NCBI GenBank assembly: GCA_038087875.1
Contig: CM075992.1
Coordinates: 5,458,001 to 5,522,000 of the forward strand
Length of the DNA: 64,000 nucleotides
Direction of reading: 5' to 3'
From: Malacoraja senta
Taxonomy: Eukaryota
Shown: positions 1 through 63,776 of the stretch, one piece after another
Layout: each line of letters opens with the position of its first letter
Numbering within the stretch: position 1 is the first letter of the stretch
Notes under the pieces: model-generated
What the model saw: only the letters and a program-made list of their open reading frames with translations
Database searches by the model: none
Told to the model about the DNA's origin: nothing
Translations under genes and position numbers: made by a program

Positions 1-2589
1 TTATCACCAGTCTGCTTGCCCGAATGAGGAGACACAAGAGAATGCAGACAATTGAAAAGTATAGCACAGGAACAGGCTATGCCGAACTTAATGCCAAGAT
101 AAACGAATCTCATCTGCCTCCACATGATCCATAAATCCTCTCTCTGCATATCCATGTACCTATATAAAAGCCTCTTAAACATTTTACCATCGCTCCTTGG
201 TGCACTAATCACCCACTGGCCATTCCTCATGCACTCATTCCTCATGGCCTCTTCCCATTCCTCATTTTGCACTGGTTATCTTTGCCCATCGAAATCTGAC
301 TATGCCATTGTAAGAAGAATTATTATATCACCGGTGTATGTCTGAGTTAGAAGGATAAGATGCACAGGGGACTAGATGCTTCAACATCACCTTCACCTGT
401 CCAGAGTCCACCAATCACCCGCATGCCCTAGTCATCTTAAACTCATGTGCACTAGCTCTAGACTCCTCCGCCTCTTTAAAAAATATATTGTCGATCTTAT
501 CTATGCCCCCTCAAAATGTTATAAACCTCCTTAAGGTCACCACTCAACCTACATTCCAACTAGAGTAACTCCAGCCTCTCCATTCTCTCCTTATATCTTC
601 AGCCCTCCATTCCAGTCAACATCTTAATTACCAAACACAAAGTACTGGACAGTCTTAGTGGATCACTCAGCATCTGGGGAGGGAATGGATAGGTGATGAT
701 TCGAATTGAGACCCTTCAGTCTGAAGAAGTGTCCCCACCTGAAACAATGCCTGTCCATTCCCTCCCCAAATGCTGCCTGACCTGCTGAGTTCCTACAGCC
801 AAAGATACAGTTCCTACAGCCTTTGTGTTTTGCCTGAAATTCCAGCATCTGTAATTTCTTATCAACATTTGATGAGTCTCCTCTTCACACCCTATATGGC
901 TACCACAATCAATATCTTTTGTATAAAATTACAAGTATAACAAATATTCTCGCTGATTTGGATGGAGGAAGGGAATTATTCCTGATATCCTGCTCCTATA
1001 GATATTCCTCATTCAACATCACTGCAACAGGATGTCTAATCATGATCATATTGCTGCTTGTGGAAGCTTGCTGTGTGTAAATTGAATAGCTTTTCTTCCT
1101 TCAGCTGAGGGTAGAGAGCTATGAACAGTTGCTATGGCAAAATACAACAATAAAATAATCAAACCCATATAGATGTGTAAATAATGTAGGGAGGGGGTGG
1201 TGTTCATACTTGACAAAAAACAACAATGCTATGAAGACTTCTTTTGATTGATTCACATAAGATTGCAGCTCCAACTTTTGTCCAAGGATGCCAATCTGAT
1301 TTCTACGTGGATTATGTTAAATATACTCCCACTGCACAATATGGCACACAAACATGCTACATTTTTCACGCTATGAGAAAGCATAGATTTCAGAATGCAG
1401 GTGAAATGCTTCCAGCAGAGGGTGCACGTAACCAAAAGAACTTTCCAGAAGCTTCAGCATTGCAATCGCTCATCGGAAGCCAATGTGAGAACAGAATATC
1501 ATTGCAAGGGGACAGAGTTCCCAGGGAGAAAGGAAATGGATTCCAGTTGGCATAGTAACAATCACATTATCTGATTAACCTTGTCTGGGAAACAGGTAGA
1601 GACCGACATGATTTATGACTGATGATCAAACTCCAGTATTATGTTGATAGAGCTTAAGCCTTTGAGAGTGACGAACCATAGACTCATTCATATATGGAGG
1701 CCATTTGGCCCATTGTATCTATGCTACTTCTTTGAAAGGACTGTCCAATGAACCCAACTGTCTCTCACCCTTTCCCACAACTCTGCAAATTGTTCTCATT
1801 TATGAAAACGGCAAATCTAGCTGAAGGAGTCAACAGGATGGCCCGAGTCAAATCAAAGAGGCCCAAGAAGGGAGAGGCTTGTCCGCACCAACCCTAGATC
1901 GCTGTCATCCTTCCAGTCGCCCAGAGGGAAATGAGTAAATGCTAGCAGTCACCTGATTAATACCAACAGGAAGTGCAGCCTGACTAGTTATCCCCTGTTG
2001 CGGCTTGGGTTTTGCTTCAAGGCAAAGTACATGGCAACTAACTGGGGAGAAAGGGTTGGGAGATAGAGCAAAATTGAAAGATATAATTGGATACTCGCAC
2101 AGGCACAATGGATCAATTCCTTCTATGCCATTTGAATTTATGATTCACCATGTGCCCTTTACATTCAATTAATATAATAGTAAAATCCACTCATTAAATG
2201 TCTCAAACCATTCCAGTACTTTAAACTACAGCTAGTGAAGATTTAGTTAACTGATGTTGGTAATGGCCACTTGCCAACCTGCACCTCTCTATTGTTTGAA
2301 TGTACTGAGGAAGTTAAACATTGATGTGAAAATTATACTTGGGACTTAACTTGCATCATCTGACACTTGATTTCATTACTTTATTGGGCACACTAACTGT
2401 TTCAGGCAGCAATCATAGTTGTTTGAAAACAAGTAATTATCTCAGGTCAATAGGTGCCTAGGGAGTCTTTTAAGCTCAAGGATGATTTGCTCCCACTCTA
2501 GTTTTGGATAATCGAAAGAGGCTAACGTGTTTATGCAAGATTGCTGATTCTTCCACAAATGGAGAAAAAAAAAAGGGGTCTGTATTTTA

Positions 2590-3790
2590 GGATATTGTAC
2601 ACTTCCACTGTTATTTGCGCATTGCCTCTGTCTGCTCCTGTCACTGAAACTCAAGGTTCTCAGTCCCATCCCAAATGCTGCTCAACTTTAAGCAGGGTTT
2701 CCCTTTGGTGATTGTGAATGTTACATTTCTTCAAGGTGGCTTGAAGAACATCTTTGAAGCACTTTCTCTGCCTTCCTGGAAATGTCTGCCTGTTACAGAA
2801 CTCAAGGTAGAATGATTGCTTTTGAAAGACTGGTGACAGACATATCCACAATGCATCTCATTCAATGAAGGTTGTTGAATATGATCAGGCCTCGCTGCTG
2901 AGTATATTGAGTTCATCAACCTTGCTTCACATCTCCTGCCAAATTTTGTGGACATAATAATGGCACTATTTCTCCAGTTCCTGAGGTCTCTACTGTCGGT
3001 TGGGATTGACCCCAAAGCAGCAATGATCACTACTGATCCATAGGCCAGGAGCTTGAGATTTTGTCCGTTGTTCATCCTTCATCAGCCAAGGGATGACTGT
3101 TGCACATGAATTTTGTTATCAATTTCTTCACCATGAAAAAGAAATGTAACACTCAAATGGAGGAGCATTTTGGATGATCCTAAGAACCATGTGCTTTGAT
3201 GAAGGTCCTGGGATGAACATTAATTTACAGTTTCAAGCTACCTATGATCATTAGTTATTGTAGGGAGCAATGATTGTAATGTAGCAAAACAAGATTAGTA
3301 GAGGACCTTTGTCTTCTGGATGTTTTGTGTGAGGACCATCTTTTCACTAAATTGAAGGAGTCAATGATGTGGAGCATGTTTTCTAAAGTTGCACTATCTT
3401 GACTTTGAAGAAGAGGCAATGGAAATTGAACAGTTTTCTGCTCCAAATGTGGACCAACACATCAGTTGGAGGTGAAGTATGTGTTTCAATGATGAAGTTT
3501 GATAGATCACAGATTCTTTATGATTGGGCAGCAGATGTTGGATCCAACGGCTTTTGGAAGACAGCCACATCTGCAAGGAATCATCCATATTTGGGCGGTG
3601 TTAAATGTTTATACAGTATCAAAAAAGATTTTATGGTTGGAGCTGTCTTCTGCAATTTTCATTGATTTTTCACATGCAGCAATATGCAGGATTTATTGAT
3701 GGAAATTTGCTATTATGACTCCTCAGCTGATATGAGGGGACAGATGAGGAGGATCCTTGTGAGGACTTTCCCTGCATCAGATAACCGGAA
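2590..3790 (-). mobile_element. Degenerate RTE-clade LINE fragment
   Basis: Minus-strand peptides GRQRKCFKDVLQATLKKCNI and LKLLAYGSVVI resemble the RTE ORF C-terminus; many frameshifts; boundaries approximate. Confidence 0.65.
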
Positions 3791-62200: not shown

Positions 62201-63776
62201 AATGGAAAATTGTCCCTAGTGTGTGGTGTGTGCTAGTGTAATGGGGATTGCTGGTCGGCATGGACTCGGTGGGCTGAAGGGCCTGTTTCCGCACTGTATC
62301 ATTGAACTAAACTTTTCAATTAAGACACAAACTGCTAGAGTAACTCAGTGGGTCAGGCGACACCATGGAGAACATGGATAGGTAACGTTTCGGGTCGGGA
62401 CCCTTCTTCAAATTGATTGTATGTCGGTGGGGGGGGGGGGAAAGCTGGAAGAGAGGAGGTGCAAGCAAAGCCTGGCAGGAGAGAGCGGAGGGGGGGGGGG
62501 GCAGGACAAAGCCTGGCAATCAGTTTGGCAGTAGGTCAAGTTGGGTTTGTTTTGGCCATGGGTCGGTTGGGTTTATATATCGGAGCGGATCTCGAGCTGG
62601 GAGAACACTGCCTGTACTCACCTAGTTTGGAAAGTACGGCCCACTACACATAGCTTTCAGAGAGCAGAAGGGACTGGAAGCACAGAGCACCTCCGACTCC
62701 ATCATTTGAGATGGCCCTTTGTGCAAAGAGTTGGTGCTCATCAATCAGCCCGAACCCTGGACACGTCTGCCAATGGCACTCCATTCCACTGTACCATGAT
62801 CCAGTGTGTCAACAGCACTCCGTAGGTTTAGGAGGATATGCTGGATATATATCCTGGACAGTGGGTCTAGTGTAGATGGGGCATGGGCAAGTTAGATCAA
62901 AGTGCCTGTTTCCATGGTGTACTTTATAACTATGCACCATCTGTACATTGTGACCCACACTGGCAATTATACACCAACTACTAATGAGACAGTGGTCCAT
63001 CACATGATAGACCAACACTGTGTGCCACGTGACTGTACCATCATTTTACAGCACAACCCATTTGCAATTCTGTCGCCATCAAATCATAGAGCACAGATAC
63101 ACGCCCTTTACAGCAGAACAAGGTGGCCCATCTTGCTCATCTCTCCTGGGTGGTGCGGCTGGTAGAGCCACTGCCTCACAGCGGTTTCCATCCCGACCTC
63201 GGGCGCTGTCTGCGTGTGCAATTTGTGCGTTCTCCCTGTGACCGCGTGCGTTTTCCCCGGGTGCTCCAATTTCCTCCCACATCCCAGAGACGTGCCGGTT
63301 GGTAGGCTAATCCAGCTTCTGTAAATTGCCGCTAGAGTGCAGGGTGTGATGACATAGAACTAGCCGTGAACGGTTGATCAGTGGACTCAGTGGGGCCAGG
63401 GGGCCTGTTCCACGCTGTATCTCTAAACTCAACCAAGAACACAGCACATGTACAAGAGCTGTTAGACATGGAGTCCTCAGTTGGAACAGTATTTTATTAC
63501 AGGATTAAAATCGTGCAGGAAAACAACCAGGTTACTGTCCTATTGTAATGTGAAGCGCAATGTAGGTCTACAACATCATAAATGCTCCTTGACCATATAT
63601 TTTCCGCCACGATTTAACAAAGAAACTACATTCTGGACAGCTTATCAAGTACCACAGAAGAACCAACAGGACTGTTTGAGTTAGGACCCGGCATAATTAG
63701 TGTCAGGGCTCAAAATGTCCTCCTCCTATTCACCTCCGACTTAGAACAATTCATTGATTTATTTCGATAATATACA
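56282..63776 (-). CDS. Candidate unannotated spliced gene, 5'-partial; exons 63776-63734, 62653-62622, 61756-61692, 58191-58151, 56383-56282
   Basis: Each exon is bounded by AG/GT, lies in non-repeat DNA and has a single open frame. Frames chain in phase: VYYRNKSMNCSKSE-LCVVGRTFQTS-GCAREVSRCSIKLEKFFEAIAV-QRSSELKAGLSLK-CLLRKSMELTKSSGVYKQLCKMLIKFCVSLYEV*. No homologue recognised. Confidence 0.45.
57077..57281. mobile_element. Self-inverted Penelope-derived element
   Basis: 16-bp TSD acctacaggagaggtt (57061-76, 57282-97). Confidence 0.85.
58592..59148 (-). mobile_element. CR1 LINE 3' fragment (second subfamily)
   Basis: Open [16 protein letters not shown]...RRMRGDLIE...[10 protein letters not shown]. 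Shorter CR1 tails occur at 8237-8438, 51757-932, 52596-865, 57470-780 and 60512-731. Confidence 0.9.
59578..59859. repeat. 48-bp tandem minisatellite, about 5.8 copies, derived from the Penelope terminal repeat
   Basis: Unit GAAACACTCAGC(A/G)GGTCAGGCAGCATCTGTGGAAGCAGGTA(G/C)CTGC(T/C)G starting at 59581, 59629, 59677, 59725, 59773 and 59821. Confidence 0.95.
61335..61362 (+). ncRNA. Minimal hammerhead-ribozyme-like motif (second Penelope subfamily)
   Basis: CTGAAGA-A-GGGT(CTCG)ACCC-GAAA-CGTC, with GUC as the predicted cleavage triplet. Confidence 0.55.

Follow-up and report, generated by a model that had tools for sequence, protein, structure and literature searches.

Minimal hammerhead motifs of a Penelope-like element in a 64-kb stretch of the skate Malacoraja senta

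A minimal class of type I hammerhead ribozyme (min-HHR) is defined by its core boxes, an extra nucleotide that separates position 9 from 10.1, a G10.1-C11.1 pair and a palindromic helix III without a loop (PMC4209133), and small hammerhead variants from Penelope elements have been described in which stem III is a very short palindrome and cleavage takes place in a dimer (Lunse, Weinberg & Breaker, summarised in PMC6765202). The related motif of Anolis carolinensis cleaves only together with the protein of its element, Poseidon (PMC11167929). Here we analyze a stretch of 64,000 nucleotides from the skate Malacoraja senta (assembly GCA_038087875.1, contig CM075992.1, positions 5,458,001 to 5,522,000; hereafter “the window”), across which such motifs are scattered, several of them in the introns of a gene related to SH2D3A and BCAR3. 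They are very probably minimal type I hammerhead motifs seated in the 3′ repeat of a Neptune-type Penelope-like element, which likely spread as short insertions and are likely inactive at most sites.

The skate motif resembles the min-HHR of PMC4209133 in its core boxes, extra nucleotide, G10.1-C11.1 pair, loopless palindrome at 15.2-16.2 and position after an open reading frame (ORF) of GIY-YIG type, as well as in being found mostly as solo copies, some of them close together on opposite strands. It differs in helix II, which has 4 bp as against 7–8 bp in Schistosoma, and in helix I, which offers 2 bp, a possible 2×2 loop and another 2 bp; 4–5 bp are typical of the class, with 2 bp in D. virilis (PMC4209133). 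Anolis Poseidon shares the hammerhead within a pseudo-LTR (LTR, long terminal repeat) and an optional tail arising from two internal starts of reverse transcription; there, both target strands are nicked and extended and unprocessed RNA is the main template (PMC11167929), a likeness proposed for the skate element from its sequence. Poseidon belongs to another clade, however, and its ORF in Anolis starts at stem II, where the skate cores have no ATG. The animal non-LTR retrozymes are likewise non-coding hammerhead derivatives of Penelope pseudo-LTRs, reported in the one cartilaginous fish sampled, with a mean length of 363 bp (bioRxiv 10.64898/2026.07.22.740005). We found no paper on the Penelope hammerheads of cartilaginous fish; the retrozyme preprint, the supplement of PMC4209133 and the work of Lunse et al. 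may list such motifs, and one of the two supplement files of PMC4209133 holds no shark or skate term.

Distribution and conservation of the motif

A 28-nt pattern, searched with up to three mismatches, has 18 matches in the window and none in any of 100 dinucleotide shuffles. The roughly 20 cores listed in an earlier note on this DNA are present as stated: all 12 plus-strand positions mark the first C of CTGAAGA and all 8 minus-strand positions the low ends of 28-nt motifs, with 62383 off by one base. That list was nevertheless an undercount, lacking the cores at 10875, 14167, 16604 and 22310 (plus strand) and at 3960, 6124, 35131, 39191, 44365 and 51017 (minus strand). The core proves to be the start of a module of about 95 nt with an optional tail of 35–40 nt, and a profile made from 16 of the copies in the window picks out 56 module pieces, covering 4,270 bases or 6.7% of the window; six of these are units of a tail-only array with a 48-bp period, and one is a marginal match. 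The array itself (59578–59859) is a minisatellite of 5.9 copies, 97% alike, built from the module tail without the ribozyme core. Some 30 cores in 64 kb is a far higher density than that of the peaks in PMC4209133, about 4,000–9,000 per genome; the summed contig depth over the module, 10^5 to 10^6 times the unique depth, is not a copy number. A motif scan of viral contigs gave no match, and the 40 loci at which a core-plus-tail pattern was found in bacterial and archaeal genomes lie in unrelated bacteria and were taken as chance.

The pieces fall into three subfamilies, A, B and C (32, 6 and 11 pieces), which are 14–22% apart. Both of the stem II subfamilies previously proposed exist, alongside a third with a CCCG loop; the suggestion that they keep stem II paired through different sequences did not hold, the change being one-sided (U-A to U-G) and not compensatory. 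The majority lines of all three subfamilies contain the core CUGANGA...GAAA...UH. The earlier note had named excess conservation of the core in family consensus sequences as a test of the hammerhead reading, and the majority lines differ at 0 of 13 core positions compared with 23 of 78 positions elsewhere (one-sided P=0.016).

Individual copies are more worn. Among the 30 ungapped copies that could be scored, the core is intact in six, and core and all four stem II pairs are kept only at 13540, 14972, 39191 (minus strand) and 61335 (4/30); the other 26 have a break in core or stem II. The A between positions 9 and 10.1 is present in 28/30 copies; it had been entered as a caveat, but since this nucleotide is conserved across the class as a defining feature (PMC4209133), it counts for membership and is not a flaw. 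The 10.1-11.1 pair is G-C in 15 and G-U in 4 of 25 copies. Helix III is an ACGU palindrome with no loop, whose A-U pair is kept in 23/25 copies and whose C-G pair in 11/25, the remainder being mostly CpG decay. The proposal that these are minimal type I hammerheads of Penelope type, with ACGT as a loopless stem III, is thus borne out in its core, G10.1-C11.1 pair and palindrome. Stem I has 2 bp proximally, then two mismatches (2×2), then 2 bp at most; 68% of its cells are paired, which is not above shuffles (25 window copies). The 3-bp stem I once singled out as the best (52139–52172) turned out to sit on an inversion junction, in a copy with C15.2>T.

The same core was also found at 16 metagenome loci, 12 of them distinct and unrelated. 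At these 12, the flanks outside the query pair as stem I at 37/48 positions compared with 19.5 expected (0/20,000 shuffles), and compensatory change is clear; in the window none rises above shuffles, three subfamilies giving little power. The metagenome pairing supports the hammerhead class, not the skate family.

Parent element, insertions and decay

The copy at 13540 does follow a GIY-YIG ORF, as had been proposed: Pfam and tblastn both match it, and a C/T-rich repeat lies between ORF and motif. The element-derived features are as follows.

13035..13430, plus strand: 3′ end of a Penelope-like ORF, comprising the end of the Cys linker and the GIY-YIG endonuclease (Pfam GIY-YIG E=1.3e-4; tblastn 66% to homologue P0003, E=7e-51)
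13431..13533, plus strand: C/T-rich pseudo-LTR, from stop codon to ribozyme motif (92% pyrimidine in the 40 nt before the motif)
13534..13600, plus strand: minimal hammerhead motif of subfamily B with intact core and stem II and a shortened tail (cut predicted after GTT, 13567)
55457..56184, minus strand: old element end with GIY-YIG remnants, pseudo-LTR, subfamily C motif (55573) and long tail
8732..9240, minus strand: decayed Neptune-type linker and GIY-YIG remnants, then a younger subfamily A copy (8823)

The ORF fragment at 13035 is 5′-truncated within the linker, beside a (CAATA)n run (repeat at 13009–13036). The order of GIY-YIG end, C/T-rich repeat and motif recurs in decayed form on the minus strand at 56184–55573; nested in this remnant is a subfamily B copy (56014–56109) which starts at C3 and has a 13-bp duplication. 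The copy at 8823 was considered as a third ORF-linked case and rejected, its short flanking repeat and younger age indicating that it is probably a nested insertion beside the older remnant. That remnant holds a CX4CX2C Cys linker (9130–9243), which is also present in homologues P0003 and P0005, and linkers of the CX2-5CxxC type mark the Neptune and Nematis clades (PMC8557442); the linker is the basis for our Neptune-type assignment, the stretch coding for reverse transcriptase being absent from the window, and it replaces a first guess of the Penelope/Poseidon clade. Best named matches of both the GIY-YIG peptide and a host-gene exon are in Leucoraja, Rhinoraja and Amblyraja. In the zebra shark, a Penelope gene model (P0008) ends in a peptide that matches the motif in translation, which, at the protein level, suggests the same link of element and motif in sharks.

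Other sequences bear on the element and its surroundings. At 18724–18972, part of a Penelope ORF, from the region preceding the endonuclease domain, directly adjoins a long coreless tail; the joint suggests a template jump or a deletion. Nested tandem repeats (12269–12580; periods 10 to 99, TCGA-rich) lie just upstream of the GIY-YIG fragment. Outside the window, RTP3-like gene models of the skate Rhinoraja longicauda and the shark Heptranchias perlo (P0002 and P0012) have an RTP zinc-binding domain fused to the Penelope linker and GIY-YIG at the same point, the two being 54% identical along 299 residues; either an old, domesticated fusion with the endonuclease or gene models that read through in parallel could account for this. 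The frames 25218–26219, 27243–27776, 29085–29522, 58678–59169, 30987–31670 and 42049–42666 resemble what we take to be 3′ ends of long interspersed elements, and only 30990–31670 matched Pfam (weak zf-RVT).

Short insertions outside the introns illustrate the forms that the module takes.

14857..15060, unstranded: subfamily B inverted pair (core 14972 intact; a long-tail and a short-tail arm; 15-bp target duplication)
44276..44405, minus strand: subfamily A copy preceded head-to-tail by a 34-nt unit (target duplication around both)
52034..52234, unstranded: inverted pair of subfamily A lying within an older copy (duplication of 15 bp; C15.2>T in core 52142)
57077..57281, unstranded: subfamily B inverted pair (16-bp target duplication; core 57192 with G12>A)
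61329..61427, plus strand: subfamily A copy (core and stem II intact; G at -2 changed, leaving 1 bp of proximal stem I)

In twelve insertions, two copies form a head-to-head inverted pair, and short palindromes inside the motif mark several of the junctions. The module has two alternative 3′ ends about 35–40 nt apart, and one long and one short tail are combined in 8/10 pairs by script, or 9/11 with one internally deleted pair read by eye (P=0.03). Target duplications of 11–19 bp flank 11 of 25 insertions, that is 7/12 pairs and 4/13 single copies (score of at least 10, with a null 99th percentile of 6.5 and boundary zones set by hand). Earlier work on Penelope elements reports inverted repeats, tails at a single end and palindromic junctions (PMC8557442, PMC3846280); the window thus presents the traits of Neptune-type insertions, with 5′-truncated and inverted copies, a 30–40-bp tail that is often one-ended, and target duplications. 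The pair at 14857..15060 is predicted to form a long hairpin in which ACGU is fully paired. Among the 18 unpaired copies that include the core's 5′ part, three enter a C/T-rich repeat and one is ambiguous, while about 14 meet unrelated sequence within 7 nt of the core, one possibly at -24; same-species contigs depart from the copy at 16359 after the same five letters and differ from there on (agreement of 0.36 across 30 letters, 1,541 contigs). At 49229–49302, a single copy flanked by a target duplication of 19 bp has its start, ambiguous in its exact place, between +24 and +28 of the motif, at or near the predicted cut site.

After insertion, copies decay by CpG loss, with the core internally like the rest of the module. 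Losses occur mostly at two core CpG sites, one of them the centre of the ACGT palindrome (24–26% mismatch). A first comparison of core with rest (2.9% vs 9.6%, non-CpG, P=4e-6) was set aside because its “rest” holds lineage-diagnostic columns and the 5′ half of the core is the alignment edge. In a stricter test, on 25 of the 32 subfamily A copies with diagnostic columns dropped, the internal core stands at 3.4% compared with 4.6% for the rest of the module, which is not significant, and the non-CpG core as a whole at 3/185 compared with 63/1284 (P=0.055).

A mechanism can be proposed on these grounds. By analogy with Anolis, the protein of the element would nick both target strands, and reverse transcription would start inside the RNA at either of two sites, giving long and short tails. 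Copying would pass through the uncut ribozyme and usually end at or just beyond its 5′ edge, with head-to-head pairs arising where two cDNAs meet at short palindromes within the motif. Cleavage by the ribozyme in the source elements would follow GUC or GUU and would require a dimer joined through the ACGU palindrome, probably helped by the element's protein; selection there would keep the core, and inserted copies would decay unselected, fastest at the two core CpG sites. What ends the copies may be a stall of reverse transcriptase at the C-rich tract or a fold-back on the palindrome TCAG-T-CTGA. Alternatively, the element RNA might begin at TCAGT, which to our eye resembles an initiator. An initiator-like TCACT is found in a rotifer pseudo-LTR (PMC3846280). 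A fuller version of this idea, in which the ~100-nt copies would be run-off cDNAs of an RNA leader started at TCAGT, with the tail sites priming and the ribozyme clipping off a capped piece of about 31–34 nt, seems to us unlikely. Under it, the 34-nt unit at 44372–44405 would be cleaved RNA captured by a template jump: the unit runs from -6 to the predicted cut site and shares no substitutions with the full copy behind it. It is a single case, which a 3-nt microhomology explains equally well.

Copies within the SH2D3A/BCAR3-like gene

The host gene had been named SH2D3A; its nine coding exons are confirmed, and its homologues are BCAR3-like in cartilaginous fish and SH2D3A in reptiles. Upstream, a 2149-nt contig of run X21 covers 15633–15769 with its end, at a depth that matches the bin of the ATG exon, and splice signals are placed at 15772 (GT donor) and 19062 (acceptor); contig end, depth and signals together make 15633..15771 a likely 5′ untranslated exon. 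The gene and its intronic copies are listed below.

15633..15771, plus strand: likely 5′ untranslated exon of the SH2D3A/BCAR3-like gene (X21 contig end, GT donor 15772)
19083..43082, plus strand: SH2D3A/BCAR3-like coding span, nine exons
16598..16696, plus strand: subfamily C sense copy in the putative first intron (G5>A and a stem II mismatch)
22221..22439, unstranded: inverted pair (15-bp target duplication; sense core 22310 with two stem II mismatches including G10.1-C11.1)
24166..24265, plus strand: sense copy 24173 (G16.2>A, one stem II mismatch)
29665..29836, unstranded: inverted pair lacking a full core (target duplication of 14 bp; a splice acceptor follows after about 20 nt)
34943..35262, unstranded: complex insertion (sense core 35160 with an internal deletion, G16.2>A and an unpaired stem I)
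37729..37827, plus strand: sense copy 37735 (intact core and 6-bp stem I; stem II with two of its four pairs broken)
39146..39320, unstranded: inverted pair (16-bp target duplication; sense core 39193 with C15.2>G and G10.1>T; antisense core 39191 intact)

Taking in the putative first intron, six sense cores lie in introns (16604, 22310, 24173, 35160, 37735 and 39193). Module pieces in the gene show no strand bias (8 sense, 7 antisense), and their lower density inside the gene (15 vs 35 pieces) is not significant (P=0.085); we see no sign that module copies regulate the host gene. The inverted-pair insertion near the splice acceptor (29665–29856) may have displaced or replaced the branch point. 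At 37729–37768, two departures from the family majority make the otherwise interrupted stem I a continuous helix of six pairs; stem II of this one copy is broken.

Weighing of the explanations

Several observations weigh against the hammerhead reading proposed here. Proximal stem I is just 2 bp, and a scan with hammerhead models, suggested in the earlier note, left the Rfam hammerhead models without a match in the window at E<=1 (all 17 Rfam matches are below gathering scores, 16 of them to microRNA-precursor models, mostly at inverted pairs, and one to CsrC). Covariation among 25 window copies is not above shuffles (105/500 as high). The value of P=0.016 for core conservation overstates independence, since the three subfamilies are related to one another, and the core is matched by other module blocks that are just as unchanged among them. 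The 5′ half of the core, with 0 changes in 98 cells of subfamily A, is more conserved than neutral decay predicts, a count affected by its being the edge through which copies were found. Subfamily A has no ORF link in the window, and a Penelope ORF was detected at 0/16 metagenome loci. Lastly, an alternative duplex is predicted to be more stable than the ribozyme dimer by about 20 kcal/mol, even for the best copy (dimer -4.3 vs -25.0); as the Anolis motif needs its protein to cleave (PMC11167929), poor predicted folding is compatible with activity.

The short stem I and the strongly favoured alternative folds would also suit a fossil, in which the subfamily masters retain a promoter or protein-binding site and cleavage has been lost; so would the lack of compensatory change between subfamilies, the uncut junction included in most insertions, and the findings in Anolis that ribozyme mutants still insert and that no RNA-seq reads end at the site (PMC11167929). 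We nevertheless hold this to be quite improbable, given a core unchanged among subfamilies 14–22% apart and a related Anolis motif that does cleave when its protein is present (PMC11167929). It is also rather unlikely that the short copies come from a separate master of 95–135 nt, resembling a short interspersed element or a retrozyme and borrowing the Penelope protein. The abrupt starts of about 14/18 unpaired copies next to the core, the shared departure of contigs from the 16359 copy and the ratio of about 49 modules to 3–5 GIY-YIG remnants in the window are what such a master would leave, but internal priming with early termination yields these products as well, an ORF end is attached both in subfamily B and in subfamily C, and no tRNA or 5S head was found in the Rfam scan of the window. 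Moreover, retrozymes are tandem units, each with a ribozyme (bioRxiv 10.64898/2026.07.22.740005), whereas the skate copies are dispersed monomers and inverted pairs of 95–135 nt: the window contains no tandem units of 51–972 bp each with a complete hammerhead, its tandem candidates being one 34-nt pair with substituted cores, which is the only motif-bearing array, and the 48-bp array without a core. The non-autonomous family that had been envisaged is explained more simply as insertions made from the autonomous elements' own RNA.

The intronic copies raise another possibility, cutting of the SH2D3A pre-mRNA by sense copies that pair in cis by way of ACGU, as had been suggested for 24173, 35160, 37735 and 39193. 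Six sense cores are indeed available; of the four A-type copies, 22310 and 37735 retain ACGT together with every core base, and 37735 adds its 6-bp stem I. Yet all six, with 16604 and 22310 included, carry a core substitution or a broken stem II, and because none (0/6) keeps core and stem II together, cis cutting is unlikely. A 22310/37735 dimer is predicted at +11.9 kcal/mol between copies 15 kb apart, three of the six copies sit in inverted pairs predicted as long hairpins, and sense pieces are not depleted in the gene. The sole intact pair on the same strand (13540 and 14972) is upstream of the 5′-most exon seen, with 14972 in a predicted hairpin. Judged from these sequences, the sense intronic copies likely do not cut the host transcript, and cis cleavage as an account of the motifs is hardly credible.

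Our preferred reading, a minimal hammerhead of a Neptune-type element, extends to a skate a class described in 2014, with relics making up about 7% of the window. If the leader model were true, skate genomes, with their very many copies, would preserve a fossil record of germ-line cleavage by Penelope hammerheads that could be counted. For the field, the question is the role of the Penelope hammerhead in vivo; should element junctions pile up at the cut site genome-wide, that role would become testable computationally, with copy number supplying the statistics.

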